Positions 1,120-34,212 of a DNA stretch of 64,000 nucleotides are shown here, in pieces. The first letter of the stretch is position 1. Each line of letters opens with the position of its first letter. A program made the translations under genes and the position numbers. The notes beneath the pieces are model-generated. The model saw only the letters and a list, made by a program, of their open reading frames with translations, did no database searches and was not told where the DNA came from. The stretch comes from an uncultured Verrucomicrobiae bacterium (GTDB lineage: Bacteria; Verrucomicrobiota; Verrucomicrobiia; Chthoniobacterales; JAFAMB01). The stretch is from the NCBI GenBank assembly GCA_963793135.1, contig CAWBYX010000028.1, positions 119,886-183,885 of the forward strand. The letters are read 5' to 3'.

Positions 1120-4100
1120 ATGTTGTGTGAATTCGATGATGCCTCTTGGAATGATCTTTTAACTCGGATTGCCGAGGGCGAGGTTATACCTGTGGTCGGA
1201 CGGGGCGCGGTTACCTTTGGGTCAAGCGATGAGCTTTTATATCCTCGGCTCGCGCGTCGCCTGCCTGCCGAACTTGATCCGCCCTTGACGTTCGAGAAGC
1301 CGCCGATCGATCTGCAGGAAGTCGTCGATGCCCACCGGGCGAACGGGCGGCCCATTGAGCGTATTTACAAGCGTCTCTACAGGATGGTGGAAAACCCCGA
1401 TCTGCGTCCCGGGGTCACGCTTGCTGCGCTTGCCGCCATCGAAGGATTCCAGCTCTTCATCAGCACAACGTTCGATCCCCTGTTGGCACGAGCGGTCGAG
1501 AGCGCCTCGCCTGGCGGGAATCCCGAAGAACGCCGCGGCGCAAGTTCCTTGCGTGACGCCTGTCCCGATCTGCCGTTAGAGCTCTCAAAGATGCAGAACT
1601 CGGACCAACGCTTCGTCTATCAGATCCTCGGCCAGGCCAAAGCCTACCGCGACTTTGTCGTCTGGGATGATGACATGTTTCGCTTCCTCCTGCGCCTCGA
1701 CCAGCAACTCCCTCTGCTTCCAAAGCTCTCTGAAGCTCTCCAGAAGAGCCACTTCCTCGTCCTGGGCCTCAGTTTTACCGACTGGCTTTTGCGCTTCTTT
1801 GTCCAGGTCATCAAACATCAGCCCCTGTCAGAACTCGCCAGCAGCGAACTATACGTTTTCGAAAAGCTCGATTCCGCCGAGCGCGACAAGGTCGTTGTCT
1901 ACTTTAGCCGGCTCAGCAAACAAATCCGCGTCTTCCCTACCGACCCCATTGACTTCATATCCGAACTGCATACTCGCTGGCGTAAGAAGCACCCTGCGCC
2001 GGTGGGAGATCCGTACCTTATGAACAAAGCAAATCGTCAAAAGCAAGGCGCCCGCGGCTGCATCTTTGTCAGCTATGCGTCGCCGGACTTGGAAATCGCG
2101 CGTTTCCTCGTCAGCCAACTTCAGAAGGCCGGTTGTTTGGTCTGGTTCGACAAAGAGCAAATCCAGCCAGGCGAAAATTGGGAGGATGAATTGCACAAAG
2201 CCGTCGAGGAGCGTTGCGGTCTTTTCTTGAGCATTATTTCCACACCACAGCGCAGTCCGGCTCGAAGGCTACAACATTCTCGAACGTAAGCTCGCGGCCA
2301 AACGGCGCGAAAAGCTTGCTGACAATGCCATCTTCTATCTGCCGCTGCGCATTGATGACGGCGACCCGCTCATCCCGGAGAATGAGCCGCGTGGCACCGG
2401 TAAAATCCAAGGCGTTCGCAAGTCCGGGCGGTCATCTCGATGAAGACTTCATCGGCTACCTGCGCGAGAAACAGCGTGAAAACTGCGCAGCCCTCGGCTA
2501 CCCTTGCCGCCAGAATCTCCCGTAGACAATGCCGCTGCCCGATTCAGACGACGGGGTTGCCGTCGCAGTGGTGCTTCTCTTGGCGAGCAAGCTTCCAGCG
2601 CGGCACCTCGCCCTGTGGCCGATCTCGAGCACCCGTGGCTTGGGCTGGAAAGTTTTCGGGAGGAAACCCGCGCCTACTTCTTCGGACGAGACACCGAAAC
2701 CGCCGAAATACATCTTCGCTTGCGCAGCCAACCGCTGCTGGTCCTCTATGGCCGCAGTGGCTTTGGGAAAGACGAGCATCCTCAGTGCCGGTCGTGATCC
2801 CGCGGCTGCGCAGAGAGGGCTATCGCGCCTCAATCCATCGGCTTAGATACGAGCAAGAGGATCCTGGCCCGCACGATCAACTCTTATTCCATTTGGGTGT
2901 GCGGGATGTCAACCGCGCTATTCCATTTCCATTGCCCAATGACGCGGCTAGCCGCCTGTGGCTGCATATGCACCGAAAGCTTCCGTGGTCCGGCGTCACC
3001 CACCTCATTCTCGATCAATTCGAAGAAGTTTTCATTGTTGAAACGCAGCGACCGGAGACCGTGGAAGAGGTTCGCGAAGCTCTCGGAATTCTCATCCAGG
3101 GGATCGTTCCTGCGTCAGTAGCCAGACTGTCTCGCTGAGGAAGAGACTTTCTTTGACTACTTCGACCCCGACTCCCAGCCTGTGCGGGTCATTCTCGCCT
3201 TACGCGACGACTACATTTATGCGCTGAACCGCTGGCGACGTCACCTTCCTCAGCTTGGCCAAAACTACTTCGAGCTGCACGCCCTTCGCGGTCCCGCTGC
3301 GTTCGATGCTGTCTTTGAGCCCGCGTCGGCTACGCGCTCACAAGCGTGAAGAAAACGGCACTCTCGTCGACGCCGACACAGGGCTGCCACCGATTGTCTC
3401 CGAGGCCACTGCTAGACGCATCGTTCGTTTCATTGCCGAGAAGAAAGAAGACGTGCCGCTTGAGGAGATAGAAGCCGTCCCACCAATCCTCTCGCTGTTA
3501 TGCCGTGAGCTAAATGAACGCCGCTACCCGCAGCCGCCCGGTGCCTTTGGACCCGCCGATGGCCGAGATAGTGTTTGATGAACGAGATGACAATGTCGAA
3601 ACCATTCTGCGAGACCTTCTACGAGCGCTGTGTGGCAGGTCGTCCGGAAGCTGTGCGCGTCTTCATCGAAGAAGACCTGGTGAGCCACAGCGGTATCCGC
3701 CTGCAAAACGACGAGCACAGCATTGTCGATATCTTCGCCAACGGCTGCGAAGTCCCGGGCGACGAAATGGGTCGATACGCTGCTGGGTATGGCGACCGCG
3801 ACGCTGCAACCGACTGTTTGCGTGAGCTCGTGGTGGCTAGCGGGTGGTAACGGCCTCAGGGATAATATGGCGCGAATCTGGGATGGGCGATCCCAACGCA
3901 TGAGGAACCGTGCGGCTGACGGCTGGGTTTATTCAGCGCCTTCGGTGCGGATGGCCAACGGTGTGACGGCCTCAAGGTAAGACGGCGCGAGTATGGGTGC
4001 GGCGACCGGGAAGCATCGGGGAACCGATGCGGCTGAGGGCGGTTCTTTCAGCGCAGTTCAGCGCGGTGGCCGACGGTGGTGACAGCTTCAGAGGATAAGA

Positions 4101-4705
4101 CGGCGCGAGTATGGGATGCGGCGACCGGGAAAGCATCGGGGAACCGATGCGGCATGAGGAGGCGGTTCTTTCAGTGCAGTTCACTACGGATGGCCAACGG
4201 GTGGTAACAGCTTCAGAGGATAAGACGGCCCGAATCTGGGATGCGGCGACCGGTAAAGCATCGGGGAACCGATGCGGCATAACGGCTGGGTTTACAGCTC
4301 AATTCAGTGCCGATGGCCAACGGGCGGTGACGGCGTCAGAAGATACGACGGCGCGAGTTTGGGATGTGGTGACCGGGAAAGCATCGGGGAACCGATGCGG
4401 CATGAGGACGCAGTCATTTCAGCGCGGTTCAGTGCGGACGGCCAACGGGTGGTGACAGCCTCAGAGGATAAGACGGCGCAAGTCTGGGATGCGCCGACCG
4501 GTAAAGCAATCGGAGAACCAATGCGGCATGACGGTCGGTTAATGCCGCGCAGTTCAGTGCGGATGGCCAACGGGTGGTGACAGCCTCAGAGGATAAGACG
4601 GCCCGAGTCTGGGATGCGTCGACCGGTAACGCAATCGGGGAACCGATGCGGCACGAGGACGCGGTTCGTTCGGCGCAGTTCAGTGCGGATGGCCAGCGGG
4701 TGTGA
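1120..4705 (+). pseudogene. SIR2-like / TIR / STAND (nSTAND- or NACHT-like) P-loop NTPase / WD40 x7 conflict-system protein, disrupted by at least 10 frameshifts.
   Basis: SIR2_2-like motifs: VIPVVGRGA, LFISTTFDPLLARAVE, FLVLGLSFTDWLLRF. TIR: GCIFVSYASPDLEIARFLVSQLQKAGCLVWFDKEQIQPGENWEDEL, continuing in another frame as RLEGYNILERKLAAKRREKLADNAIFYLPLRIDDGDP. NTPase: HPWLGLESFREETRAYFFGRDTETAEIHLRL..PLLVLYGRSGFGK / TSILSAG / VIPRLRREGY (a Walker A motif spread over three frames), Walker B HLILDQFEEVF, then VRVILALRDDYIYAL. This is followed by seven ~126-nt WD40 units. The reading frame moves 1>2>0>(1)>2>0>1>2>0>1>2>0 between about 2242 and 3850. Confidence 0.8.
3850..4705 (+). repeat. Seven tandem ~126-bp WD40-encoding units. 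The consensus is [42 protein letters not shown].
   Basis: WD dipeptide codons (tgggat) recur near 3880, 3990 (degenerate), 4112, 4238, 4362, 4488 and 4612. The units are highly similar at nucleotide level and carry indels relative to one another. Confidence 0.8.
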
Positions 4706-4756
4706 CCGCCTCATGGGAAAGAGGGCGACCGGATGCGGCAGACCGGAACGAACGGG

Positions 4757-4780
4757 GAACGAGAGGACGAGGACGCGATT
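4757..4780. repeat. Isolated copy of the ACGAG(G/C)ACGAG hexamer-periodic motif (gaacgagaggacgaggacgcgatt).
   Basis: The same motif class occurs at 35851-35896, 36167-36215, 36575-36626, 36969-37009 and throughout 52404-52826. Confidence 0.5.
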
Positions 4781-4798
4781 AATTAAACCCAGTTAACC

Positions 4799-5275
4799 CT
4801 AAAAAGGTATATCGTCCGGCTCGGTGTCCAGGTCCGGGTCGCGCGGTTCGGGCCGGGCAGGGGGAGCGGACGTGGTGGGAGTGCGGCGAGGTGCGGAAGC
4901 CGAGAACGAGCCGGAAGCGGGGGAGCCGCCCTCAGCATCTTGCCGGCTGCCCAGCAGTTGTAGATTTTCGGCGACCACCCGAAGCCGGGAACGTTTTTGG
5001 CCAGTTTGCTTGTCGTCCCAGCTGTCCAATTGGAGACGACCCTCGATAAAGACCGGGCGGCCTTTTTTCAGATACTGCCCGGCAACCTCCGCCTGTCGTG
5101 CCCAAAGCGTGACGTCGACAAATGTCACTTCCTCCTTCTTTTCACCGTCTTCTCCTGAGTAGACCCGGTTGACTGCAAGACCAATCTCCGTGACCGCAGT
5201 GCCCTTGGGTGTGTAGCGCACCTCAGGATCGCGAGTGAGATTGCCGATTAAGAGGACGCGGTTGAGATTTGCCAT
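4799..5275 (-). CDS. ssb: Single-stranded DNA-binding protein.
   Basis: MANLNRVLLIGNLTRDPEVRYTPKGTAVTEIGLAVNR..., an OB fold, a Gly/Pro-rich linker and the canonical acidic C-terminal tip DDIPF. Confidence 0.95.
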   Translation of the reverse strand: MANLNRVLLIGNLTRDPEVRYTPKGTAVTEIGLAVNRVYSGEDGEKKEEVTFVDVTLWARQAEVAGQYLKKGRPVFIEGRLQLDSWDDKQTGQKRSRLRVVAENLQLLGSRQDAEGGSPASGSFSASAPRRTPTTSAPPARPEPRDPDLDTEPDDIPF

Positions 5276-5284
5276 AAGCGATGT

Positions 5285-5602
5285 CTAGGCTTTCGAAGTT
5301 CGGGCAGGTACCTTAAGCGGTAACCTCTGATAATGCTGGAGAAAAATGATGGGATCGAGCTTAAATTTGCCGCGCAGCTTGGTGATCAAAGTTGGATCTG
5401 CTTCGAAAATAAAATTGACGTAATAGGCGGAGTCAAGGTGACGGGGGCTGTACGCCAGAGGGCGTTTATCCATTTTTTGGACTTGTTCCACCTCGGCGCC
5501 CTCTTTCGCAAAGTCCGATTCCAGACGTTCGATGATCTCTTTCACGCTGTCTTCCTGGCCATGAGTATCAACGGCCAGCAAGCATTCATAACGATTGTTC
5601 AT
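5285..5602 (-). CDS. rpsF: 30S ribosomal protein S6.
   Basis: 105 aa, sitting immediately upstream of ssb (the conserved rpsF-ssb pairing). S6-like sequence: YECLLAVD...KRPLAY...YYVNFIFEADP. Confidence 0.85.
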   Translation of the reverse strand: MNNRYECLLAVDTHGQEDSVKEIIERLESDFAKEGAEVEQVQKMDKRPLAYSPRHLDSAYYVNFIFEADPTLITKLRGKFKLDPIIFLQHYQRLPLKVPARTSKA

Positions 5603-5614
5603 AATGTTTCAATA

Positions 5615-6175
5615 TTATTCTGCTCTGTTGTAACTGTTCATCGCCGAGGCGATCCCTTGCTCCGCGACATGCTCAATGGCCTCTGCCGCACGCTCGATTG
5701 CCCTCTCCATGGTTGGCTTTTCCAACCGGTCGAATTCACCCAGGACATGGTCGCTCAAGGCTTCCGCACTCGAACCGCCAATCCCAACCCTCAAGCGCAT
5801 AAAGTTCTCGCCCAGATTGACGATCATCGATTTCAACCCGTTGTGGCCGCCGTCGCTTCCAGTTGGCCGCAGCCGGAGCCGGCCAAGCGGCAGAGCCACA
5901 TCATCGACCACGACCAGGATCTCTTCCGGCTGAACCTTAAAGTAACGCGAGAATTTGCCAATGACATCTCCCGTTCGGTTCATATAGGTCAGTGGCTTGA
6001 TCAAAAGGATGTCGCCCCATTTTCCCAATTCTGAGCTCCAAGCCGCCGATCTTGAAAAAGTCACCCTGTTTTTTCCCGCCAAACAATCGAGCACCATGAA
6101 GCCAACGTTATGCCGCGTGCCGCTATACTGGAGCCCAGGATTTCCCAGGCCAGCTACGAGACGCAGACTAGCCAT
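5615..6175 (-). CDS. pth: Peptidyl-tRNA hydrolase.
   Basis: LVAGLGNPGLQYSGTRHNVGFMVLD...GHNGLKS motifs, 186 aa. Confidence 0.93.
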   Translation of the reverse strand: MASLRLVAGLGNPGLQYSGTRHNVGFMVLDCLAGKNRVTFSRSAAWSSELGKWGDILLIKPLTYMNRTGDVIGKFSRYFKVQPEEILVVVDDVALPLGRLRLRPTGSDGGHNGLKSMIVNLGENFMRLRVGIGGSSAEALSDHVLGEFDRLEKPTMERAIERAAEAIEHVAEQGIASAMNSYNRAE

Positions 6176-6181
6176 GGACAG

Positions 6182-6850
6182 TTAAGGCTGAGGAGTCTCC
6201 TGTTTGGCTTCTCCCTTCTTCTCGGTGATGACCTCGGGAGCCGCCGGGGTTTCCGCGGTTTCTGTGACTTCTTCGCCCACCCGCGAAGCAACCACACTGA
6301 CAACGGTCAAATCTTCAGGGGTGAGTGATTCAACGCCTGAAGGAAGAGGAATATCGCGGACGTGAAGCGATTCGCCGATATTCAAGTTGGTCACATCGAT
6401 CCGAACGATTTCAGGCAGATCTTGCGGGAAACATTCGACTTCCAGCGTGCGTAAAGAATGTTCCAGCAGTCCACCGAAGGTTCTGACTCCCAAGGCGTCA
6501 CCGACGGCTTCAATCGGAACTTCGGAGGTGATCTTCTCGGTTGCGGAAACGGCATGAAAATCGACATGGAGCAATTCCGGCCGTAAAGGGTGATGCTGCA
6601 CTTCCTGAATCAGGGCCAGTCGATTGGTGCTTTGGCTGCCGTCCGCGATCTCCAGTTCCACTAAAACGTGTTCGCTCAAGGCGTGTGCAAGCACGTTGGT
6701 CAGGGCACGGCCTTCCACTTGAAGGGCTATTGGCTCCCCCTGCGAGCCATAAATGACGCCGGGAACCAATCCTTGTGCTTTGATCTTCTTTATAGCGTTC
6801 CGACCGACTACGGTCCGTTTTTCCGCTTTCAGCTTAACTTGTTGAGCCAT
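6182..6850 (-). CDS. rplY: 50S ribosomal protein L25 / general stress protein Ctc.
   Basis: 222 aa with an L25/Ctc-like N-terminus (LKAEKRTVVGRNAIKKIKAQGLVPGVIYG), an acidic C-terminal tail and the prs-ctc-pth gene order. Confidence 0.88.
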   Translation of the reverse strand: MAQQVKLKAEKRTVVGRNAIKKIKAQGLVPGVIYGSQGEPIALQVEGRALTNVLAHALSEHVLVELEIADGSQSTNRLALIQEVQHHPLRPELLHVDFHAVSATEKITSEVPIEAVGDALGVRTFGGLLEHSLRTLEVECFPQDLPEIVRIDVTNLNIGESLHVRDIPLPSGVESLTPEDLTVVSVVASRVGEEVTETAETPAAPEVITEKKGEAKQETPQP

Positions 6851-8098: not shown

Positions 8099-11000
8099 TC
8101 AGGACAGCAACTCGGTGAGTTTTGTCCGGAGGATTTCCTCATCTCGAACCGAGTAGCCTGGATCAGCCTTCAGGCGGACCTCGTGGCCGTCGAGCGAATG
8201 GAAACGCAGATAAAGCGGCTGTGCCCCTGGGAATTGGCAGACCAGGTCGCGGATGGCGATCAAACGTTCTTCATCGACCTTTTCCATAGAGATGTCGATT
8301 GTCAGGGCCTTGGTTGACTTTCGGCTGTTCAGTGGCCCGATTTCATTTGCCACGATCCGGATGTTTTCCTCCCGCTTGTCCAATTTCCCGGTGATCGCGA
8401 CAATTCTTCCTTTATCAATCTGTTTGGCTGCTTTCGCGTAGACCTCTCCCCAAACCATGACCTCGACGGATCCGGTAAAGTCTTCAACCGTCAGGATGGC
8501 AAACGGCTTTCCCTCTTTGCGGGTAAGCTTCTTGTCAAAGGCAGAGATCGAACCGGCAATTTTGGCTGTGCCCTTGTCCTCCTGTTCGGCTAGATCACTG
8601 ATTTTCGTATACCCTCCTCCCTCGATACTCTCTCGATAGGCGTCCAGCGGATGTCCGGTTACGTAGAAGCCCAAGAGGTCTCTTTCATGCCCTAGCTTTT
8701 CGGCGATCGACCAAGGCGTGAAATGGACTTTGTCACCGTTTGCTTTTGGAGTCGCCGCCATCTCCAGCTCGCCAAATAACGAAACCTGGCCGCTTCGTCT
8801 GTCCCTGTGCGCGGAGGCACCGGCGGACAAAGCTTGATCGATTCCCTCAAACAGTTCCGCACGATCTTTCCCGGTGAAATCGAAGGCTCCAGCCCGGATC
8901 AGATTTTCCAGGATCTTGCGGTTGACCGACTTGGAATCCAGGCGGCTGCAGTAATCCTCGACAGATTTGAACGGACCATTCTTTTGACGTTCGATGATCG
9001 CAGATTCCATGGCGGCTTCGCCGATATTTTTGATCGCGGCGAGACCGTATCGAATACCCCGCTGCTCGGCGTGCGTTTCAGGGACAAACTTTAAATGGCT
9101 CCGGTTGACGTCCGGGGCCAGAATCGATATCCCGAGTCTCTGGCATTCCGCGACAAAGACGGCAATTTTATCCGTGTTGTTAACTTCGTTGCTGAGTAGT
9201 CCGGCCATGAATTCAACCGGATAATTCGCTTTCAGATAAGCGGTTCGATAGCTGATCAACCCATAAGCGGCGCTGTGACTCTTATTGAAACCGTATCCGG
9301 CGAACTTTTCGAGGAGATCGAAAATGGCATTGGCTTTCTTTTCGTCGATGCCGTTTACCCGAGCGCATCCCGCGATAAAGTTGACGCGTTCCTTCGCCAT
9401 CTTCACCTTGTCCTTTTTCCCCATCGCTCGCCGGAGAAGATCGGCCTGACCAAGGGTGTATCCGGCCAGAACGTTCGCTGCACGCTGGACCTGTTCCTGG
9501 TAGATCATGATCCCGTACGTATTGGCGCAGACCTCTTTCAGCAGCGGATGCTCATATTTGATTTTGGTCTGGCCCTTCTTGCGCTTGATGTAGTCGGGAA
9601 TCAGCTCCATGGGGCCGGGGCGATAGAGCGCGATCAGGGCGATGATATCGTCGATACTATTGACATCGAACTGTTTGCAGAGATTCACCATTCCCCCGGA
9701 TTCCAACTGAAACACGCCAATCGTTTCGCCGCGATTGAGCAGTTCAAACGTAGGTCGATCATCGAGTGGCAGCGCTTCGAGTGAAAAATCCGGGTGCCGA
9801 TCCCGAATCAGGGCCGTTGCATCCTGCAGAACCGTGAGTGTTTTAAGCCCAAGGAAATCCATCTTCAACATGCCCAGGTCCGTGAGCGGGCCCATCGCAT
9901 ACTGGGTCACGACTTCATCGTCGTTGCCGCGGCAAAGAGGAATGTAGTTGTCGAGCGGACGATCGCCGATCACCACGCCCGCAGCGTGAATACCGGTGTT
10001 CCGAGTCAGACCTTCCAGAACGGTCGCGTAGCTCCAAAGTTGCTGCGTGCTCTCTTCGGTTTCGACGGCTTGCTTCAATTCCGGGTTCTTCTCAAAAGCG
10101 CCTTTCAGCGTGATCCCGAGTTCGTTCGGGATCATCTTTGCGATGCGATCGCCATCCGAATAACTGAGGCCCATCACCCGGCCAACGTCTCGAACCACGC
10201 TCTTGGCCCCTAGCGTGCCAAAGGTGATAATCTGCGAGACTGCGCGCGCACCATACTTTCGCCGCACGTACTCAATCACTTCACCTCTTCGGTTCTGGCA
10301 GAAATCGACATCGATATCTGGCGGGCTCACACGTTCCGGATTGAGAAACCGCTCGAAAATCAGCTCAAATCGCAGCGGGTCAAGATCGGTGATCCCCAGG
10401 ACATAGGCTGCGAGCGATCCTGCCGCGGAGCCGCGTCCGGGCCCCACCGGGATGCCATGTTGTTTTGCGTAATGGATAAAATCCCAGACAATGAGGAAAT
10501 AGCTGACGAATCCGGCCTTCTCCAGGACCGATAGTTCATATCCTAAGCGTTGCCGAAGTTCCTGGTCGGTTTCGGCTCGGTCCCCGTATCGCTCTCGCAA
10601 ACCGCTCTCGCAAAGCTCGCGAAGGTATCCTTCACGCGTTTTCCCTTCCGGCGGCGCGTAATCCGGGTATTTCGAAACGCCAAACTCAAGTTTGAGATCG
10701 CAGGCTTCCGCGATGCGAAGCGTGTTGGTCAGGGCTTCTGGAAGGTCGCGAAAAATGGCCCGCATTTCCTCTGCAGATTTGAAATAGACTTCGGTCGGAT
10801 AATGCATCCGGCGTTCGTCGTGGACCATTGACCCGGTGCCGATACAGATCATGACGTCGTGCGCTTCATGATGGGATCGCTCCAGAAAGTGGACATCGTT
10901 TGCAGCCACCAAGGGGAGTTCCATTTTCTTGGAAATCTCCAGAAGCGCTCGGTTACAGAGGTGTTGCGCCTCCAGTCCGTGATCATGAAGTTCGAGATAA

Positions 11001-11521
11001 AAGTTTTCCGGTCCGAATATTTCGGCGAAATCGGCGGCGGATTTCTGTGCCTTACTCAGGTCGCCCGCCTGGATCGCCATATTGATTTCGCCTTTCAAGC
11101 AGGCGCTCATACCGATCAGTCCCTCGCTGTGCTTCGCGAGTAACTCTTTGTCGATCCGTGGCTTATAGTGGAAACCTTCGAGATGCGCGGCGGAGACGAG
11201 TTTCACCAGATTGTGATAACCGCGAAGGTTCTTTGCCAGCAGGGTGAAGTGGAAGGCGGCGTCGCGGGCAGATGAAGCGCTTTTGTCGATCATCGAGCCG
11301 GGTGCCATGTAGACTTCGCATCCGATAATGGGTTTTACGGCTGCCTTCTCGGCCGCCTGATAGAACTCGATCGCACCGTAAAGGTTGCCATGATCGGTCA
11401 TCGCCACAGCGGGCATCCCTAACTCGGCTGCCTTTTTCATCAGATCGGGTATCCGAATAGCGCCATCCAGGAGCGAGTATTCCGTATGAAGATGGAGGTG
11501 GACGAATGGGTCGGTCGACAT
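8099..11521 (-). CDS. dnaE: DNA polymerase III subunit alpha.
   Basis: 1140 aa. PHP domain at the N-terminus (FVHLHLHTEYSLLDGA), polymerase core (GLLKMDFLGLKTLT) and a C-terminal OB region. The reading frame is intact. Confidence 0.97.
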   Translation of the reverse strand: MSTDPFVHLHLHTEYSLLDGAIRIPDLMKKAAELGMPAVAMTDHGNLYGAIEFYQAAEKAAVKPIIGCEVYMAPGSMIDKSASSARDAAFHFTLLAKNLRGYHNLVKLVSAAHLEGFHYKPRIDKELLAKHSEGLIGMSACLKGEINMAIQAGDLSKAQKSAADFAEIFGPENFYLELHDHGLEAQHLCNRALLEISKKMELPLVAANDVHFLERSHHEAHDVMICIGTGSMVHDERRMHYPTEVYFKSAEEMRAIFRDLPEALTNTLRIAEACDLKLEFGVSKYPDYAPPEGKTREGYLRELCESGLRERYGDRAETDQELRQRLGYELSVLEKAGFVSYFLIVWDFIHYAKQHGIPVGPGRGSAAGSLAAYVLGITDLDPLRFELIFERFLNPERVSPPDIDVDFCQNRRGEVIEYVRRKYGARAVSQIITFGTLGAKSVVRDVGRVMGLSYSDGDRIAKMIPNELGITLKGAFEKNPELKQAVETEESTQQLWSYATVLEGLTRNTGIHAAGVVIGDRPLDNYIPLCRGNDDEVVTQYAMGPLTDLGMLKMDFLGLKTLTVLQDATALIRDRHPDFSLEALPLDDRPTFELLNRGETIGVFQLESGGMVNLCKQFDVNSIDDIIALIALYRPGPMELIPDYIKRKKGQTKIKYEHPLLKEVCANTYGIMIYQEQVQRAANVLAGYTLGQADLLRRAMGKKDKVKMAKERVNFIAGCARVNGIDEKKANAIFDLLEKFAGYGFNKSHSAAYGLISYRTAYLKANYPVEFMAGLLSNEVNNTDKIAVFVAECQRLGISILAPDVNRSHLKFVPETHAEQRGIRYGLAAIKNIGEAAMESAIIERQKNGPFKSVEDYCSRLDSKSVNRKILENLIRAGAFDFTGKDRAELFEGIDQALSAGASAHRDRRSGQVSLFGELEMAATPKANGDKVHFTPWSIAEKLGHERDLLGFYVTGHPLDAYRESIEGGGYTKISDLAEQEDKGTAKIAGSISAFDKKLTRKEGKPFAILTVEDFTGSVEVMVWGEVYAKAAKQIDKGRIVAITGKLDKREENIRIVANEIGPLNSRKSTKALTIDISMEKVDEERLIAIRDLVCQFPGAQPLYLRFHSLDGHEVRLKADPGYSVRDEEILRTKLTELLS

Positions 11522-11608: not shown

Positions 11609-11690
11609 GCCGAGGTGGCGAAATTGGCAGACGCGCCAGACTTAGGATCTGGTGGAGCAATCCTTAGGGGTTCGAGTCCCCTCCTCGGTA
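11609..11690 (+). tRNA. tRNA-Leu, anticodon UAG.
   Basis: Hand-folded: acceptor gccgagg / cctcggt (G1-U72 wobble), anticodon stem ccaga/tctgg with loop cTTAGga, a long variable arm, T arm agggg-ttcgagt-cccct and discriminator A. No CCA is encoded. Confidence 0.85.
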
Positions 11691-23013: not shown

Positions 23014-24746
23014 TTGGATATTTACCTGTCGTGCTTGCTCGGAGGGCTGGTTGCACTGGCAGCCTTTGTTTTGTGCGGGGCGGGGTTTCATCATCCGGGA
23101 GTTCACCACGGTGAGGCTTCCCCGGGGTATAACGGTCATGTTTCGGGCCATCACCACTCTTTGGATCGCTCAAACGCTGCCTCCAATGGCTGGTCGTCCT
23201 TTTCGATCTTGACATGGCTAAGCTGCCTCTCGCCGCTCTATCTTTGCGGCGCTGTTATTGGTTTTGGCGTTACAGGCACTTTGGTGGGGCACTTATTCCA
23301 AGGCTGGCCTTGTTTTGCGCTCGCTCTTCTGGGGGCTTACCTCACACGCATTATCTGTATTCGACCGCTGATTTCCGGGATTCTAATGTGGGCGTCACGA
23401 CCGGCGAGAACCCTGGGCGACGCCGTGCTTGAGACTGGGATTGCGGCAACCAATTTTGATGCAAACGGCTACGGCATGGTCAGGCTTTCTCTCGATGGGC
23501 AGATTGTCCAATTGCTGGGTCTGCTGGTGCCTGAGGAGTCGACCGCGCTTCGCGTTAATGCCGGGGAGAGACTTTTCATTCGCTCTGTCGACTCGGTAAG
23601 ACAACGATGCCGGGTGAGCCGAACGGCTGCGTTTCCGCTCGAGCCTCTGCCCGATAGCGCGCAAGAATTAGACGCAAAACCGCGCCGCGTCTGTCCGACT
23701 TGTGGTCATGTCTTTTCTGGGAACATGCAAGGCTGTCCGGTATGCCTGCTCCGGAAGGCTCTCGACCCCGATGTGGAGTTGATTGAAGCAGCAAACGCTG
23801 CGGCCGGTCAACCCATACCCGGATATCCAACCCAAAAATTTGAACATTATGAGCTCGTACGTGGGGCCGACGGGAAGCCGCTGGAGTTGGGTCGGGGAGC
23901 GATGGGTGTGACTTACAAGGCGTTTGATACCAGATTGAGTTGTCCCGTGGCACTAAAGGTTATTGGCGAAAGGTGCTTGGGAGACAATGGTGCCCAGTTC
24001 GCTTCCTGCGCGAAGCTCGCGCGGCAGCCAGTGTTCGACATCCGAACGTAGCTTCGGTCTTCCACCTGGGCAAAAGTGATCGAAACCATTTTTACGCGAT
24101 GGAGTTTGTCGAAGGCGAGACTTTAGAACGGCTAGTGAAACACTCAGGCCGGCTTCCAGTCAAACTAGCGCTCGAAATAGCACGACAGGTGAGCGCCGGG
24201 TTGGCCGCTGTGCACAAACAGAAGCTAGTGCATCGGGACATCAAACCGAGCAACATTATGGTGAACTTGGACGCAGAAGGCTCGGTGGTCGCCAAAATTA
24301 TCGATTTGGGCTTGGCAAAAGCAATGTATGAAGCGGGTTCTCAGGCCGGAGTCTCTGCGGCCGGAGCTTTTGTTGGAACGCCTGAGTTTTCCAGTCCCGA
24401 ACAGTTCGCCGGAGTTGGGGTCGATATCCGCTCTGATGTGTACGCTCTAGGCGCCACAGTTTGGTATATGCTGAGCGGAAAACCGCCCTTTGGCGGCACT
24501 GCCGCAGAGTTGATGTATCAGCATTTACATGCCCCGTTGCCAATTGAACTGTTGGGCCAGATCCCCCAACCGGTCTCCATTCTCCTTGCGGTGTTGCTCG
24601 AGAAGGACCCCGCCCTGCGCGTTCAGAGCCCGACGCAATTTCTAACTGCGCTACCGACGGTTATGGAAGCTATAGACTCCGGCAATCCTCTGACCCGTAT
24701 GAACCTGGAGACTCCAGCGGTTTTGGCTATTAGCCGTCCTCCTTAA
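23014..24746 (+). CDS. Fusion protein: YqiJ/NfeD-like polytopic membrane anchor with OB domain, Zn ribbon, and Hanks-type Ser/Thr protein kinase. One -1 frameshift near 24006.
   Basis: N-terminus: TM segments flanking a His-rich loop (HHPGVHHGEASPGYNGHVSGHHH), then an NfeD-C-like segment (GDAVLETGIAATNFDANGYGMVRLSLDGQIVQLLG..GERLFIRSVD). Zn ribbon: CPTCGHVFSGNMQGCPVC. Kinase: LGRGAMGVTYKA..VALKVI, then in another frame RFLREARAAASVRHPNVA..HRDIKPSNIMV..DLGLAK..GTPEFSSPEQ. Confidence 0.8.
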
Positions 24747-27313: not shown

Positions 27314-28066
27314 TCAGCTTTCGATGCGGTCTTTCATGCGGTAGCTGGAGCCTTCGATTAAAACGGTTTCGGCGTGGTGGAGGAGACGGTCGAGTACGGC
27401 GGAGGTGATAGTGCTATCACCGTTGAAGATGGTAGCCCACTGTTTGAAGGCTTTGTTGGAGGTAAGTACGATAGAACCGCGTTCATAGCGTTGGCTGATG
27501 ACCTGGAAGAGCAGATCGGCTCCGCGCTGGTCGATGGGAAGATAGCCGATCTCGTCGAGGAGCAGCAGCGCGGGTGAGAGATAGCGTTTGAGCTCGGATT
27601 TGAGCACGCCTTTAGTCTGGGCGGCACTCAAGGTGTTAATCACGTCGATAGCGTTGGCGAACAGGACGCTATAGCCGTGCTGGCACGCGGCATAGCCGAG
27701 TGCTGTGGCCAAGTGAGTTTTGCCGAGGCCAACCAGACCCAGGAAAATAACGTTGGCTTTCTCTTCGATAAAACTAAGCCGGAAGAGGTCCTGGATCTGG
27801 AGCCGATTGATTTTTTTGGGCCAGTCCCAACGGAAGCCTTCCAGGGTCTTGATGACTGGAAAACGGGCGGCTTTGATTCGCCGAGCAATCGTGCGCTGTT
27901 GACGTGCCGCGACTTCGCCCTGAAGGAGTCGACCCAGGTAGTCGAGATGGCTCCAGTGGTTGGCGGCGCTTTCGACAGCCAAGGGTTGGCAGTTTTCTTT
28001 GACACAAGTCAACTTGAGGTAATCAAGGTGCTCATTGAGCAAGAGGTCGGCAGGATTTCTAGTCAT
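27314..28066 (-). CDS. istB: IS21-family helper ATPase IstB.
   Basis: Walker A LGLVGLGKTHLATALG, Walker B LLLLDEIGYLP, C-terminal TSNKAFKQWATIF..LDRLLHHAE. The true start is the ATG at 28066 (MTRNPADLLL..), overlapping the istA stop by 8 nt. The ORF-track start at 28297 is an artefactual extension. Confidence 0.92.
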   Translation of the reverse strand: MTRNPADLLLNEHLDYLKLTCVKENCQPLAVESAANHWSHLDYLGRLLQGEVAARQQRTIARRIKAARFPVIKTLEGFRWDWPKKINRLQIQDLFRLSFIEEKANVIFLGLVGLGKTHLATALGYAACQHGYSVLFANAIDVINTLSAAQTKGVLKSELKRYLSPALLLLDEIGYLPIDQRGADLLFQVISQRYERGSIVLTSNKAFKQWATIFNGDSTITSAVLDRLLHHAETVLIEGSSYRMKDRIES

Positions 28067-29969
28067 GGTTTGGGCACGATGGGGATGGTGTCTGTGAGCC
28101 TTCGTAGACGGAGAGATCGGGCTGCTCGAGTTCGACCTCGAGCAGATCTTGGCGCCTGGTGAGGTGGAGCGGGCCGGGCTGAGGGCTGAAGCGCTCGCGT
28201 TGTTGGAGGATGTTAGCGATATAGTCGCTGCTGAAGGCCTGGAACTCGAAGGAGTCTTCGATGGCGCGAGCGATTTTGTCGCAGCCATGAACCTCACTTA
28301 AAGCCATGATCTTGGCAATGTGTTGACGGGGGTTAAGGCGGTGGATCTTAAGCTGGAGGTAATACTCTTCGGCACGGGGACAGAGGCCAAAGAAGCGCAG
28401 CAGCAGTTTGGCGTCGCGTGCTGCACGGCGCTGATCGAGCAGTTCCTTGCCGTGCTCGGGATCTTCGAAGTCCTGGTGCCGGTCGTAGCTGCGGGTGTGG
28501 GTGGCGATCAGCTTCTCGCCGTGGTAGATGCAGAGCCGATCGGCAAAGGTTTTGAGTAGCAAAGGCTGGGAAGCATAAAGGCTGGGAACCGAATAGCGGT
28601 TGGTATCCAAGACCACACGGAAGCGGCTGCTGGTCGGTACAGTCCGGATGACTCCGGTGTCGGCGGGAAGCGGCGGCAACGCGTTCAAATGCGGCTTTTC
28701 CAGTGCGAAGAGTTCGATCGGTTGTTTGTGCGTTTCCCCGTGAATGCGGACATTGGCAACCGTATCCATCCAGTGGCGTGCAGCAGTGTTCAGTGCGTTC
28801 AAGCCGGGAGGCAGTTGCAGGCCGTCGAGGAAATTTTTCTTTACGTACCCGACACCGGATTCCACACGGCCTTTTTCGTTTGGCCTTCGCACGTTACAAG
28901 CACGCGGCTCGAAGCCGTAGTGTGCTGCAAAGTCCAGGTAGCGCGGATGAAAGAGCGGCCGTTCTCCAGCAGGATGCTTGAGCACAGCGGTCTTAGGATT
29001 GTCGATGAGAATTTTGGTCGGAACGCCGCCGAAAAACTCCAAAGCGTTCTGGTGAGCGGCCAGGAAGTGCTCCGTCGCTTCGCCCAGGGTAAACTCGACA
29101 TAGCACAATCGGCTGTAGCAAAGCACCATGACAAAGAAGGAGAGCCGTCGGCGAGTTGAGCCAATTGCCATCGAGCCGGCGCAGCCCCAATCGACTTGCG
29201 CGCATTCGCCCGGAGCGAACACCAGGGTCAGGAAAGCTGGCGCGCGCACGGGCCGCACTCGACGCACATAGTCTGTGAGGATGGAGATTCCGCCGGTATA
29301 AGCCTGCTCGGCACGCAGTCGTTGGAAGATTTGCGCGGCGCTATACGGATGCTGCTCCAACCAGCGCTGAATGATTGGCTTGTAAGGATCGAGCTTGCTC
29401 TTTCGCCGGGCTCTGAGGTGCTGGCAGTAGGTCTTCTGGCGCGCCCACTTTGCTACCGTCTCTTCATCGAGGTTCAACTCACGGCCGATCTGGGCAAAGC
29501 TTAAACCACGCTCCTTGTAGTAGAGCTGGATTTGACAATAAAGCTCGTAAGAGATCACGGCGAGCGGCTGCTGCTGCGCTCCTCCGGTCTCCAACATCTG
29601 GCGCAAAATCGCGCTGATGGGAAGCGTCTGGCCGGAGCGCGCAACGGGTGGTTCACTGGTCGAGGTCGGTTCCAGGCTCAAGACTTGGTAGAGCGGAGAT
29701 TCGTAAGCAATCAGACCCGCTGCCAGCAAACTGCACCGAGCCTCGCGCAACTGGGCTTCATTGAGCGAGAGCAACCGTGCCGCGGTCTTATCGGAGTAGT
29801 AACTTAAACCCTGCGCATCGGCCACCGTGACCAAGAGCAGGTAAAGCGCCAGCGCTTGAGGACCACACCGGGCGATGTGGCCATCGCGCACCAGCCGTTG
29901 ATCGATCCAACTAAAGCGGTGCGGCACATGGCGCAGCCGTTCCGGACAGAGTACCCGTTTGGTTATCAT
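28059..29969 (-). CDS. istA: IS21-family transposase IstA with a ~125-aa N-terminal winged-helix-like extension.
   Basis: HTH ERGLSFAQIGRELNLDEETVAKWARQ, and a DDE integrase core (..ECAQVDWG..., VLCYSRLCYVEF, ..LIDNPKTAVL.., RRPNEKGRVESGVGYVKKNF). The N-terminal 125 aa (HRFSWIDQRLVRDG..ALALYLLLVTVADAQGLSYYSDKTAARLLSL..GLIAYESPLYQVLSL) are in frame with no stop. Confidence 0.9.
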   Translation of the reverse strand: MITKRVLCPERLRHVPHRFSWIDQRLVRDGHIARCGPQALALYLLLVTVADAQGLSYYSDKTAARLLSLNEAQLREARCSLLAAGLIAYESPLYQVLSLEPTSTSEPPVARSGQTLPISAILRQMLETGGAQQQPLAVISYELYCQIQLYYKERGLSFAQIGRELNLDEETVAKWARQKTYCQHLRARRKSKLDPYKPIIQRWLEQHPYSAAQIFQRLRAEQAYTGGISILTDYVRRVRPVRAPAFLTLVFAPGECAQVDWGCAGSMAIGSTRRRLSFFVMVLCYSRLCYVEFTLGEATEHFLAAHQNALEFFGGVPTKILIDNPKTAVLKHPAGERPLFHPRYLDFAAHYGFEPRACNVRRPNEKGRVESGVGYVKKNFLDGLQLPPGLNALNTAARHWMDTVANVRIHGETHKQPIELFALEKPHLNALPPLPADTGVIRTVPTSSRFRVVLDTNRYSVPSLYASQPLLLKTFADRLCIYHGEKLIATHTRSYDRHQDFEDPEHGKELLDQRRAARDAKLLLRFFGLCPRAEEYYLQLKIHRLNPRQHIAKIMALSEVHGCDKIARAIEDSFEFQAFSSDYIANILQQRERFSPQPGPLHLTRRQDLLEVELEQPDLSVYEGSQTPSPSCPNHD

Positions 29970-30475
29970 CGTGAGAATGCGTCGTTGTGACTCCAGAGCC
30001 TCCTGCCGAGGATGTCCTGGCCTTTGCTTAGCAGCGCCCGGGTGGTCGCCGCGATGTCCTCTTGTAACGCACTACCAGTCATCATGGAGATAAGTCCCAC
30101 CATCACAGCAGGTTGCATCACCAAGACATCTTGTAACGCATCGGAGATCTCTATTCTTTTAACTTCCTCATCCTGAGCTACTTGAGTCGCACAGAGATCT
30201 TGTAACGGTTCTCGGGGTAGAGGGCTCTTTTTGCGCCAGTACCCGGGATTGCGTTTTCGCCACTCTTTGACACGCTGGCTATTTTGCGGCCCGCTGAAGT
30301 AGTTTTGGTTGTCCGGTTTTTGTGCCCAGCGGCGCTGACTTTCCGCTTTGCTCTGTCTGCGACAGGCAGGTTCTGCGCAGTAGCGCTGATGATGCAAATT
30401 GCGTCGATCCGGCAGATAGAACTCCTTGCAATGCTGGCACTTCCGCCGCGCAGAACACTTCATCGGCAAACTCAA
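29966..30475 (-). CDS. IS-associated Cys-rich (putative zinc-ribbon) protein, 169 aa.
   Basis: MSLPMKCSARRKCQHCKEFYLPDRRNLHHQRYCAEPACRR... (C-x4-C-x2-C ... C-x4-C). Its stop overlaps the istA start by 4 nt, and it lies inside the TSD-bounded element. Confidence 0.65.
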   Translation of the reverse strand: MSLPMKCSARRKCQHCKEFYLPDRRNLHHQRYCAEPACRRQSKAESQRRWAQKPDNQNYFSGPQNSQRVKEWRKRNPGYWRKKSPLPREPLQDLCATQVAQDEEVKRIEISDALQDVLVMQPAVMVGLISMMTGSALQEDIAATTRALLSKGQDILGRRLWSHNDAFSR

Positions 30476-30664
30476 GAGTTTGAGTTGCCGCTACTTCAAG
30501 CTCCCTGCCCAAGATCGAAGAAAATTAGCGCCGCGACGGAAGAAAACGGAACAAGACAGAACAAAATGAAGAAAAGTTCTTGCTTGAACCTTTGAAGAAA
30601 ATCCTGCCTTCCCGTATCCGGTTCTTAAACCGGTGAGTTTACCGGACTATTAAATCGGCGCTGA

Positions 30665-31291: not shown

Positions 31292-31389
31292 ACTTCGCTC
31301 GGATTTTTCGTTAGGATTTGTCTATGCATCGCGTCCAATCCGTCATTGCGGACGCTGCGCAAAGCCCCAAATTAGCTTAGATCATCCAT

Positions 31390-31819
31390 ATGAACATTAT
31401 TATATAGTACCGAAGTCTCGGCAACCGGTGGCCGTCATGGCCAGATCCGCAGCGAGGACGGGCTTCTTGACATGAAATTGGCCATGCCCCGTCAACTCAG
31501 CGGCAAGGGAGATGCAACGAATCCAGAGACGCTTTTCGCCGGCGGCTATGCCGCCTGCTTCGAGAACGCGCTCCTTCGCGTCAGCCGTGAGGCAGGGCTG
31601 AGATTGGCGGACGAAGACGTCGAAGTCGTTGCTGAAATTGGTCTCAGCCGCAACGAGTCGGGTGGCTTCGTCCTATCCGCCGCGCTCGAGGTCACCGTCA
31701 AAGGAGTGGACCAAAAGAAGGCCGAAGAGCTGGTTGGGTCTGCACACAAAATCTGCCCCTATTCCAATGCCATTCGTGGCAACGTCGACGTTGGCATCAC
31801 CGTTTTGGCCCATCAATAG
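31390..31819 (+). CDS. ohr: Ohr/OsmC-family peroxiredoxin (organic hydroperoxide resistance), with a +1 frameshift after codon 4 (about 31400-31402).
   Basis: The ATG at 31390 gives MNII, then one extra base. The next frame reads YSTEVSATGGRHGQIRSEDGLLDMKLAMPRQLSGKGDATNPETLFAGGYAACFENAL...ICPYSNAIRGN. The in-frame ORF lacks any start codon upstream of the internal M at 31472. Confidence 0.8.
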
Positions 31820-31976
31820 AAAGGCTTATAAACGCAAATCATCAGAAGCATGACATAGTTCTGAATACCGGCGCGAGGGCCTCTTGGTGAAAAGTGGCAC
31901 GGGACGATCGGAAATTTCATCGGAACGTTGCCGGTCCGTATTGACTCCGATTGTCAAGAATCTTACCCTCCGGTTC

Positions 31977-32093
31977 ATGGGTGACAAATCTCCGAAGGCC
32001 ACGCACAAACAGGCGGCGCAGAAACAGAAGGCTAGCGCTGCAAAAAAGAAAACCAACGCTCCCAGCTCAAAGCCGGTTCCAAAGCCCAAGTAG
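31977..32093 (+). CDS. Possible small basic protein (38 aa).
   Basis: MGDKSPKATHKQAAQKQKASAAKKKTNAPSSKPVPKPK. It resembles a class of tiny Lys-rich proteins starting MGDKSPK, which I recall from other bacteria. This is not verified. Confidence 0.3.
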   Translation: MGDKSPKATHKQAAQKQKASAAKKKTNAPSSKPVPKPK

Positions 32094-32254
32094 TCGCGCA
32101 GCAGGGTTTCGCTGTCGAAGTGTGGGCCACCTCCTGTGGGCCTGAGCGAGGAGTCTTTCTCCGGCGAGAGTGTGACTTAGCGATGCGGAGAGGGCGACAG
32201 ACGCTTCGCGCATCCTGAAAGGGCGATCTCGGCGCTATGAAGGGATCATAGCAT

Positions 32255-33799
32255 TCATGCTTTGGCGTTCTCCAACCTTGGAAGGATTGGGGTTGGTTTC
32301 CCAAGCACATGTCCAGACGGCAAGCCGCCCCACTGCAGGGTTCGTAAATGCCCAGCTTGCAGCTGCTGAAGGATTTTCTCACTCGCTGTCGGAATGACCG
32401 GACTGACCATGAGCGCCAGCAGTCTGACGGTCTCTGCCAACGTGTAGAGTACCGCGTCCAATAACTCCGAATGTGCCGGTTCTTTAGCTAGCTTCCAGGG
32501 CGCTTTTTGTTCTACCAAAGAGTTGGCTCTGGTCACCATCTCCCAGGCAGTTTCAAGCGCCACATTCACCTCGAACCGTTCGAAGGCGGCACGGTAACGG
32601 CCGATGACGGAGTGGCCCAGATCGCGCATTGCTTTCAGATCCGGATCGTTTAGCTCGCATGACTCGACACGGCCGTTGCGATAGCGCTGGCTCATACTGA
32701 TGGTTCGATTAACCAGGTTCCCCAGGTCATTGGCCAGATCGCTGTTGTTGCGCTGCACGAGATTCTCTTCGCTAAAATCGGAATCCTGTCCGACGATGTT
32801 ATCCCTCATCAAATAGTAGCGAAGGACATCGGCTCCGTATCTGTCGGCCAAAATAGACGGATCAACGGTGTTTCCGAGGCTCTTGCTCATCTTGGCGCCC
32901 GCCACATTCCACCACCCGTGGACGATCAATCTCGGCATTTGCTCGTCCGAAAAACCCATCGCGTGGAGCATGATCGGCCAATAGATACCGTGGGCTGGAA
33001 CTAGGATGTCTTTTCCTATGACATGCGCCTGGCAGGGCCAGAGCTCGTTGAAATTGGGTAGGCTTGGATCGTTATCGGAAAGATAACCAGCAAAGGAAAT
33101 ATAGTTCAAAAGCGCGTCGAACCAGACAAAGGTGACATAATTCGGGTCGAACGGAAATTCTATGCCCCAGGAAAGCCGCTCCTTTGGCCGTGAGACGCAT
33201 AGATCACCTGAAAGGCGCTCAATCGCGTTGAGCAATTCGGTTCGGCGCCACTGCGGGACTACGAAATCGGGGTGTGTTTCAACGAAGTTTCTGAGCCAGC
33301 CCTTGTGTTTTACGAGAGGGAAATACCAGTTCTCTTCCTCCAGAAGAACGACCTCTCCCCACTCGGATCCAAATTCACCCGCCTCGTTTCTTTCTTTGTC
33401 AGTCAGAAATTGTTCTTGTCGGACGCTGTAATACCCGGAGTACTTTGCCTTAGTCAACTCGCCCTTTTCATGAAGGGACTGCAGAACTCGCTGAACGGTC
33501 CTTTGATGTCTCGGATCAGTTGTTGCTGCCCAGCCGTCGTTTTGAATGCCGAGCTTGTCCCAGAGGGCGAGAAACTTCTCCGTGACCTCTTGCGCAAACT
33601 TCATGGGCTCGATCCCACGCTTTTGAGCCGCCTGCTGAACCTTTTGCCCATGTTGATCGACCCCGGTCAAAAAGAAAGTCGGTCCGTCAAAAGCTCGATG
33701 GTACCTGGCGATAACGTCGGTCAGGATCTTCTCGTAGGCGTGCCCGATGTGCGGCTCGCCGTTTGTATAGTCAATTGCAGTTGTAATGAAGTACTTCAC
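32255..33799 (-). CDS. metG: Methionine--tRNA ligase (short form).
   Basis: Start is the GTG at 33799, giving (M)KYFITTAIDYTNGEPHIGHAYEKILTDV (HIGH motif). KMSKS motif present (GAKMSKSLGN). The ORF-track start at 33919 overlaps the upstream TPR gene. Confidence 0.93.
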   Translation of the reverse strand: MKYFITTAIDYTNGEPHIGHAYEKILTDVIARYHRAFDGPTFFLTGVDQHGQKVQQAAQKRGIEPMKFAQEVTEKFLALWDKLGIQNDGWAATTDPRHQRTVQRVLQSLHEKGELTKAKYSGYYSVRQEQFLTDKERNEAGEFGSEWGEVVLLEEENWYFPLVKHKGWLRNFVETHPDFVVPQWRRTELLNAIERLSGDLCVSRPKERLSWGIEFPFDPNYVTFVWFDALLNYISFAGYLSDNDPSLPNFNELWPCQAHVIGKDILVPAHGIYWPIMLHAMGFSDEQMPRLIVHGWWNVAGAKMSKSLGNTVDPSILADRYGADVLRYYLMRDNIVGQDSDFSEENLVQRNNSDLANDLGNLVNRTISMSQRYRNGRVESCELNDPDLKAMRDLGHSVIGRYRAAFERFEVNVALETAWEMVTRANSLVEQKAPWKLAKEPAHSELLDAVLYTLAETVRLLALMVSPVIPTASEKILQQLQAGHLRTLQWGGLPSGHVLGKPTPILPRLENAKA

Positions 33800-33803
33800 T
33801 CGG

Positions 33804-34181
33804 TCAGTCGCGCACGATTTTGCCACCCCAGGATAAGATGCGAGCCTTTGCTCCCGCTGCCTCTGCCTCTTTGATCTGGCTATTGCGAACGTAGAAGAGC
33901 GAAAGGCTGGACCAGGCAAGTTGGTCGTTTGGCCGAAGCTCGACCGCCTTCTTACCGGCCTCGATTGCCTCGGGGTAGTTCCCGTTTTTCATCAATGTCA
34001 TCCCAAGCGCATGCCATCCGTCGAAGAAGGCCGGAAATTGACCGACGCATTGGCGATATTTTTCGATCGCAGCTGGCAGTTCGCCAATCGCCAGTTCTCC
34101 GTTAGCGTCGTCAAAGAGCTCTTCAATTTCTGCGGGAATGTCGTCCATTCGTTCCTTGTGCGCGAAAATCTCACGGGCCAA
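33804..34181 (-). CDS. TPR-repeat protein (125 aa).
   Basis: TPR-like helices: AIEKYRQCVGQFPAFFDGWHALGMTLMKNGNYPEAIEAGKKAVELRPNDQLAWSSLSLFY. Confidence 0.65.
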   Translation of the reverse strand: MAREIFAHKERMDDIPAEIEELFDDANGELAIGELPAAIEKYRQCVGQFPAFFDGWHALGMTLMKNGNYPEAIEAGKKAVELRPNDQLAWSSLSLFYVRNSQIKEAEAAGAKARILSWGGKIVRD

Positions 34182-34212
34182 AGCACTCGTAAGATTTTCG
34201 CGCTAGATGCTC

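Follow-up and report, generated by a model that had tools for sequence, protein, structure and literature searches.

Two adjacent genes at the locus

The DNA analyzed here is a stretch of 64,000 nucleotides (the window) from contig CAWBYX010000028.1 of an uncultured Verrucomicrobiae bacterium, and the locus of interest lies near its 5′ end, where the remnants of two consecutive genes, gene A and gene B, occupy the + strand. Gene A (1120–2525), delimited by its relatives and by Pfam, encodes a SIR2-like domain, a TIR domain, and a C-terminal helix. The 5′ part of gene B (2529–3833) encodes an nSTAND1 NTPase, recognized by Pfam and by its Walker motifs, and is followed by the remnant of a WD40 array (3834–4785), detected by Tandem Repeats Finder and Pfam. 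The closest intact relative, L001, is an 11.5-kb Joint Genome Institute (JGI) metagenome contig that is 96–97% identical to the window and syntenic with it, with ssb downstream. Comparison with L001 revealed an internal deletion junction at 3830–3840 and a 3′ deletion junction at 4785–4798, both assigned to the + strand, and comparison with L001 and the related loci L102–L109 revealed an upstream junction at 847–851, to which no strand is assigned. The ssb gene (4799–5275, − strand) is convergent with the operon and belongs to its context, outside the system. We regard the locus as fairly likely to be a damaged, at least partly mis-sequenced copy of a two-gene TIR/NLR-like operon of the STAND/NLR-like conflict class. 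As deposited, this copy is unable to encode a working system.

Small insertions and deletions (indels) were corrected by projecting the window onto L001, and the result was translated. Pfam recovered SIR2_2 (3e-9), TIR_2 (1.1e-15), nSTAND1 (7e-28), and WD40 (1.2e-53) from this translation, all above the gathering scores, in agreement with a first-pass annotation that had read SIR2, TIR, P-loop, and WD40 modules from the letters alone. The motifs quoted there were each located on the + strand. The SIR2-like region contains VIPVVGRGA (1183–1209), ISTTFDPLL (1459–1485), and FLVLGLSFTDW (1753–1785), and the TIR region contains CIFVSYASPD (2059–2088) and YNILERKLA (2270–2296), the latter holding the catalytic Glu codon. 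The lead-in to the NTPase, HPWLGLESF (2630–2656), is followed by Walker A (GRSGFGK and TSILSAG, 2750–2792), which is interrupted by a frame break, and by Walker B (LILDQFEE, 3004–3027). The seven WD40 blades correspond to 7.3 units of ~125 nt identified by Tandem Repeats Finder at 3834–4727, and the convergent housekeeping neighborhood to the gene order ssb-rpsF-pth-L25-prs. The proposal of an NLR-like conflict locus composed of SIR2-like, TIR, STAND NTPase, and WD40 modules is thus supported. Overlooked in that first reading was the absence from the window of ~2.2 kb of gene B.

The same annotation took these modules to form a single polypeptide of continuous architecture. In the window, gene A ends with the stop codon TAG at 2523–2525, followed by ACA and by the ATG of gene B at 2529, and the stop codon, the 3-nt spacer, and the ATG are conserved in L001, L002, L003, and L102–L109. 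The continuity over this boundary was only apparent, because an open but wrong frame had been followed. A search with the intact open reading frame (ORF) returned more than 100 proteins of ~460–470 aa containing SIR2_2 and TIR_2 and no other domain, the best match being P0001 (467 aa, 99% identical). We retrieved 83 loci from metagenomes and GTDB species representatives; in 78 of them, which span at least five phyla, a separate nSTAND1 gene lies directly 3′ of gene A, the usual junction being an ATGA overlap or a 3-nt spacer. Three loci have no downstream nSTAND1 gene, one of these being at a contig end, and two (L015, 7001–9961; L043, 7001–11548) read as a single ORF through both modules. In a scan of 1.84 billion cluster representatives, no NTPase extension C-terminal to gene A was found in the 150 best matches (all E < 1e-104), nearly all of which are 440–500 aa long, the few longer ones being extended N-terminally.

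The two single-ORF loci, together with known fusions of an effector to a STAND module, such as the SIR2-STAND protein Avs5, are the points in favor of one giant SIR2-TIR-STAND-WD40 polypeptide with two NADase effectors. Both loci, however, are on MFD-series contigs from metagenome-assembled genomes (MAGs), and L043 has lost the conserved gene A tail just ahead of the junction, its apparent fusion being likely a frame error rather than a true fusion. Set against the separate genes in 78 of the 83 loci, the boundary conserved here and in the relatives, the lack of C-terminal extensions, and the missing SIR2 catalytic residues described below, which weaken a double-NADase model, the giant polypeptide is highly improbable. 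For this lineage, the single-polypeptide model is already refuted: related genomes carry the segments as separate genes, each intact in its own right, an outcome that the first-pass annotation had itself named as speaking against its model. Separately, in four proteins of 878–1030 aa (P0144, P0148, P0184, and P0232), the SIR2-like/TIR module is C-terminal and follows an N-terminal extension of 430–585 residues.

The combination of SIR2 and TIR had also been considered uncommon. We found at least 554 loci of the family among GTDB species representatives, in several phyla, as well as ~2,400 50%-identity clusters at E ≤ 1e-30, among them some that match through a TIR or SIR2 domain alone. In at least eight further metagenome samples, the operon is intact at 90% nucleotide identity, with a gene A of 467 aa and a gene B of 1464 aa. 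A second operon copy was sought within the window, and none was found. The surroundings of the relatives L002 and L003 contain TraG/VirD4, RadC, an SNF2-NOV_C helicase, DUF1156, a further TIR protein, and ADP-ribosylglycohydrolases, and resemble defense islands or mobile elements.

Domain properties of the two proteins

Gene A has 467 codons after removal of the inserted bases at 2243 and 2426, with the SIR2-like domain at codons ~1–290 and the TIR domain at ~310–420, followed by the C-terminal helix. As sequenced, the first ORF (1120–2289) encodes 389 aa, its frame being intact to 2242. In the AlphaFold model of the protein (pLDDT 81), two domains are followed by a C-terminal helix (residues 441–458). 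Foldseek searches returned ThsA, Avs5 (SIR2-STAND), and DSR2 as the top matches of the first domain, and matched the second to the SPARTA TIR-APAZ and MyD88 TIR domains. Membership in SIR2_2 is above the cut-off (Pfam, 3e-9 to 4e-9), and a profile search matches ThsA at 4e-6. Membership in TIR_2 is supported by Pfam at ~1e-15, and the best TIR match is SPARTA TIR-APAZ (E 2e-8).

The residues at the catalytic positions differ between the two domains. ThsA N112 (TTNYD) aligns with T117 (TTFD) of gene A, a position that is T, S, A, or G, and never N, in 181/181 distinct members. ThsA H152 (KMHG) aligns with L170 (QILG), where L, F, or M, and never H, is found in all 181 of these members. The GxG glycine and D119 are retained. 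In the TIR domain, E388 aligns with the catalytic E77 of SPARTA TIR-APAZ, the equivalent of SARM1 E642, and this residue is E in each of 178 ungapped members; in the window, its codon lies past the first frameshift. The absence of the catalytic Asn and His from the SIR2-like domain, together with the invariant TIR Glu, indicates one likely NADase rather than the two tandem NADase effectors of the first-pass annotation. On the basis of these alignments, the TIR domain is likely the sole credible NADase of gene A, and the SIR2-like domain appears to be a conserved pseudo-enzyme, which may provide a nucleotide-binding or oligomerization scaffold rather than a second NADase activity.

The gene B NTPase belongs to nSTAND1 (PF20703; E about 1e-28 to 1e-34), with Walker A GRSGFGKTS and Walker B LILDQFEE. 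Gene B of L001 (6756–11165) starts 3 nt past the stop codon of gene A (5349–6752) and encodes 1469 aa with 16 WD40 units, that of L002 encodes 1091 aa with TPRs, and that of L003 encodes 594 aa. Of 32 orthologues from five phyla, 31 have a single, strongly hydrophobic segment of 19–25 residues immediately C-terminal to the NTPase; its hydrophobicity and the charge bias around it suggest a membrane helix. The mean number of Lys/Arg residues around the helix is 5.8 on the NTPase side versus 3.2 on the other; the NTPase side is richer in 28 of the 31, and the reverse was never observed. According to the positive-inside rule, the NTPase is probably cytoplasmic and the C-terminal repeats probably lie outside the membrane. 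The helix is deleted in the window copy.

The part of gene B after the helix consists of WD40 repeats, TPRs, DUF2610, or unrecognized sequence, depending on the orthologue. In L001 (8612–10610; gene B residues 621–1292), it comprises sixteen near-identical WD40 units of exactly 42 aa with 3–4 hypervariable positions, including positions 5, 9, and 25 of the unit. A ligand-binding surface undergoing rapid diversification would be expected to show such a pattern. Short versions of gene B in L003 (11408–13192, 594 aa) and L004 (8411–10243, 610 aa) end ~15–40 residues past the helix and have no external sensor domain, and in L003, a 335-aa ORF without a Pfam match lies 3′ of gene B. These short versions may represent a split sensor or a decayed form. 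With Pfam, gene A yielded no EAD or Death-like adaptor, and neither did the 35 residues of gene B that precede nSTAND1, which begins at residue 36. The helix at residues 441–458 in the gene A model is a candidate docking element, or a small undetected adaptor, for gene B.

Damage in the window copy and its origin

The counts given here compare the window with L001, with indel signs from the window's side. Segment 1120–2242 shows 0.9% substitutions and no small indels. Divergence jumps from 0.9% to ~6% exactly at the first indel, at 2243, and segment 2243–3746 carries ~6% substitutions, eight +1 insertions (2243 (C), 2426, 2771, 2794, 3126, 3326, 3555, and 3610), and one −1 deletion (2574). Such a jump would fit a consensus of mixed strain haplotypes at a hypervariable, repetitive locus. 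One in-frame 21-nt insertion occupies 3747–3767. The 7.3 units of the WD40 remnant, nominally of 126 nt (42 aa), correspond to L001 units ~8.5–15.5. Within this remnant (3834–4785), we counted 23 deletions of 1–6 nt and zero insertions, with 2.7–4.7% substitutions up to 4714. The array ends (3834–4110 and 4715–4785) have 4–5 deletion events per 100 nt, and the last 70 nt of the WD40 part contain 12% gaps in the local alignment. The many frame changes noted at first pass thus resolve into nine single-base indels at 2243–3610 and the 23 small deletions in the array. The single-base deletions in the array are biased to A (9 of 14), and a change of GCAATCGG to GCATCGG recurs in three WD40 units (4135, 4260, and 4383); this recurrence and the A bias might stem from systematically miscalled bases or from gene conversion among the units.

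Three larger deletions were also identified. The internal deletion of ~1,510 nt (L001 8035–9545) removed the coiled coil, the single predicted transmembrane helix, and WD40 units 1 to ~7.5; its left breakpoint lies in unique sequence, TGG/GGT microhomology is present at the junction, and a C-to-T change creates a TAG codon just past it. The 3′ deletion of ~737 nt (L001 10533–11270), flanked by two near-identical 11-mers, GCGC[A/C]ATTCAC, removed the last WD40 unit, a C-terminal domain of ~180 aa, the stop codon, and the spacer. Upstream, a 1,086-bp segment with a Phenol_MetA_deg outer-membrane gene (L001 3992–5078) is absent at window position 847. This segment adjoins the operon in L001 and L102–L109 despite their differing downstream context.

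We consider it likely that most of the small indels (~32) are technical, arising as consensus errors of an error-prone assembly. With L002 as the outgroup, 6 synonymous and 7 non-synonymous substitutions were assigned to the window lineage in gene A (ratio of non-synonymous to synonymous rates, dN/dS, 0.35), and the gene B NTPase acquired 16 and 9, respectively (dN/dS 0.19), neither value exceeding those of the intact lineages. Zero nonsense substitutions were found in 900 indel-corrected codons, the sole stop being that at the internal deletion junction, and just one of the eight insertions duplicates a neighboring base. Indels and substitutions stand at 9:90 in the NTPase part, at 23:52 in the WD40 part, and at 20:29 where the latter aligns cleanly (3834–4714), whereas 12.4 kb of this window's nuo operon give 4:834. 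The − strand nuo operon (37.0–49.5 kb) itself contains +1 insertions, which split nuoL (40543) into ORFs of 472 and 213 aa (596 aa in relatives) and nuoG (45090) into ORFs of 301 and 265 aa (554 aa), and remove the N-terminus of nuoD (49244). Each of the three is unbroken in L110 and L111, assemblies made independently from a relative at 93% identity, and dozens of proteins at 97–98% identity are likewise intact. Since three frameshifted, otherwise conserved complex I subunits are biologically implausible, the assembly is error-prone. The internal deletion junction had zero exact matches in the metagenome collection, and a protein-seeded metagenome scan returned a best relative of 85% identity and no independent copy of the window allele.

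Several observations weigh against a purely technical origin. The indel density here is ~25–100 times that of the nuo operon, so that a local cause, such as low coverage, strain mixture, or repeats, must be assumed. One error process would hardly be expected to yield insertions only in the NTPase part (save the deletion at 2574) and then deletions only in the WD40 part. With their unique-sequence or microhomology breakpoints, the larger deletions look like real erosion through microhomology-mediated events, and if these deletions are real, real small indels become more plausible as well. For the three larger deletions (1.5 kb, 0.7 kb at the 3′ side, and 1.1 kb upstream), we judge the chances of a real origin to be about even. 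A genuinely decaying pair of pseudogenes, with every frameshift and deletion present in the organism's DNA and the operon lost by the strain, would accommodate these breakpoints, one of which took the upstream neighbor gene, and the nonsense substitution at the internal junction; defense genes turn over fast, and the allele carries a natural in-frame 21-nt indel relative to L001. Such decay is nevertheless difficult to reconcile with dN/dS values of 0.2–0.35, with first 900 codons free of nonsense changes despite nine frameshifts, and with roughly one indel per 10 to per 2 substitutions, the insertions being non-templated. The array-end deletion rate is near raw-read noise, the same type of +1 insertion breaks the three complex I genes, and the deletion junction is absent from the metagenome collection searched. 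We hold full decay to be unlikely.

Programmed recoding, in which ribosomal frameshifting would allow the gene to be expressed as written, has nothing in its favor beyond the existence of many frame changes. The 32 shifts are of both signs and lack slippery motifs, the orthologue is intact at every shift site, and like indels also occur in the nuo genes, which leaves this explanation a negligible probability. Mutagenesis by a diversity-generating retroelement (DGR) was rejected from the nature of the changes, which are indels rather than A-to-N substitutions, and no search was made for a reverse transcriptase. The earlier verdict of a copy that is dead or else very badly assembled is supported.

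Other frame-breaking indels noted in the window also favor a mostly technical origin of the small indels. A Ser/Thr protein kinase gene (~23,940–24,051, + strand) is frameshifted near 23,990: its glycine loop and ALKVI lysine motif share one frame, and a different frame holds the remainder of the kinase domain (Pfam Pkinase from profile position 44). About a dozen more single-base indels were found relative to L110 at 31,294–34,195, in the region of adh_short, OsmC, and methionyl-tRNA synthetase, some of them as close compensating pairs (34180/34195). Elsewhere, an IS21-type element occupies 27,314–30,490 on the − strand, with istA (rve and Mu-transposase C-terminal domain, 636 aa) and istB (IstB_IS21, 327 aa), and a tRNA-Leu gene (11609–11690, +) adjoins dnaE (8099–11521, −).

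Possible function and relation to known systems

A tentative model, to which we give somewhat less than even weight, is that the intact family is a transmembrane bacterial NLR with a cytoplasmic nSTAND1 module, one helix, an extracytoplasmic hypervariable WD40/TPR sensor, a separate TIR NADase, and a dead SIR2-like assembly scaffold. In the reading of the locus favored above, gene A is the probable effector, and gene B the probable switch and sensor. Binding of a ligand to the external repeat array of gene B would trigger NTP-dependent oligomerization of the cytoplasmic nSTAND1 module, which would recruit and cluster the SIR2-like/TIR protein. The TIR active sites would thereby assemble and either destroy NAD+ or produce a signal, leading to growth arrest or abortive infection. 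In ThsA and Avs5, it is the SIR2 domain that is known to bring about filament formation (entries 8bto, 9jap, and 9nc9).

A defense role is suggested by the domain logic and by the L002 and L003 contexts. On the opposing side, PADLOC, run on gene A and on three types of gene B, gave domain-level TIR and ThsA-SIR2 matches only and has no model for the system, and NCBIfam holds no model for either protein. The literature search, which covered SIR2-TIR with STAND and transmembrane-anchored STAND proteins with TIR, found no description of this operon. The operon might instead be a transmembrane signaling or self/non-self device, responding to envelope damage, competitor effectors, or kin with a TIR output, rather than an anti-phage system. 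Judging from the helix and the charge bias, the sensor probably lies beyond the membrane, whereas the characterized Avs and bNACHT sensors act in the cytoplasm. The window and L001 copies are surrounded by housekeeping genes. Hypervariable WD40 arrays of this type are moreover classic in fungal allorecognition NLRs. The L002 and L003 surroundings, however, resemble defense islands or mobile elements, TIR with STAND is a signature of immune systems, and a periplasmic sensor could equally detect phage ejection proteins; we consider such a signaling or recognition device improbable.

The window copy, broken and largely mis-sequenced, is of little value in itself, and its interest lies in pointing to a large, multi-phylum, experimentally untouched family. 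Three features of this family are unusual. The TIR effector is encoded apart from the STAND switch, without a recognizable adaptor domain; the conserved SIR2-like domain is stripped of its catalytic residues and, if confirmed, would be a natural case of a SIR2 pseudo-enzyme; and a membrane helix probably sets the repeat sensor outside the cytoplasm. If the transmembrane NLR model holds, the family would be a prokaryotic counterpart of Toll-like receptor logic, in which invaders or competitors are detected at the envelope and not in the cytoplasm, and its confirmation would carry NLR-like immunity in bacteria beyond surveillance of the cytosol to that of the envelope. The locus also calls for caution, in that dense frameshifts in a repeat-rich, strain-variable MAG defense locus should not be taken as biology until the reads have been checked.

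Among described systems, the nSTAND1-centered conflict systems (Kaur, Burroughs, Iyer, Aravind, eLife 2021, PMC8195603) share with this operon the nSTAND1 NTPase, an adjacent separate effector gene, a variable C-terminal sensor, and an occurrence in soil and 'complex' bacteria. In those systems, the effector and the NTPase are coupled by shared EAD or Death-like adaptor domains (PMC8195603), whereas no Pfam-detectable EAD/Death adaptor is present here and a conserved, predicted transmembrane helix separates the NTPase from the sensor. DGR-diversified nSTAND1 sensors have been described, and the nSTAND1 DGR target is predicted to be cytoplasmic (PMC10907252).

As in Avs5 (AVAST type 5; 9jap, 9nc9) and Avs1–4, an effector directed at NAD+ would be under the control of a STAND NTPase equipped with a repeat sensor, and the N-terminal domain of gene A is structurally similar to the Avs5 SIR2 domain. 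Each Avs protein, however, is one soluble chain whose N-terminal effector is active. In the present operon, the effector is encoded separately, its SIR2-like domain lacks the catalytic residues, the TIR domain is the likely enzyme, and the NTPase is predicted to be membrane-anchored; PADLOC gave no Avs match for gene B. Thoeris (ThsA SIR2-SLOG and ThsB TIR) uses the same two folds, and ThsA is the best sequence and structure match for the SIR2-like domain. The operon differs from Thoeris in combining SIR2 and TIR in one chain, in the replacement of N112 and H152, and in its STAND NTPase partner. Gene A has no SLOG, STALD, or Macro domain, and the ThsA models match weakly (1e-3) and in the SIR2 part only. 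The TIR-APAZ protein of SPARTA, a short prokaryotic Argonaute (pAgo) system, is the best TIR match, and its TIR domain is activated by induced oligomerization; unlike SPARTA, the operon has no APAZ or Argonaute, and its activator would be an NTPase instead of a guide-target duplex.

Finally, the near-identical 42-aa WD40 units with few hypervariable positions recall the fungal HET-E/NWD-type and the actinobacterial/cyanobacterial NLRs, and the array shows the concerted-evolution, hypervariable-site pattern known from fungal NLR repeats, although the fungal NLRs are cytosolic single chains. The predicted arrangement of an external repeat sensor, a transmembrane helix, and cytosolic TIR signaling parallels that of the Toll-like receptors and MyD88, but Toll-like receptors have no NTPase and carry the TIR domain on the receptor chain. 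The resemblance to fungal NLRs and Toll-like receptors is one of architecture and not of homologous membership.

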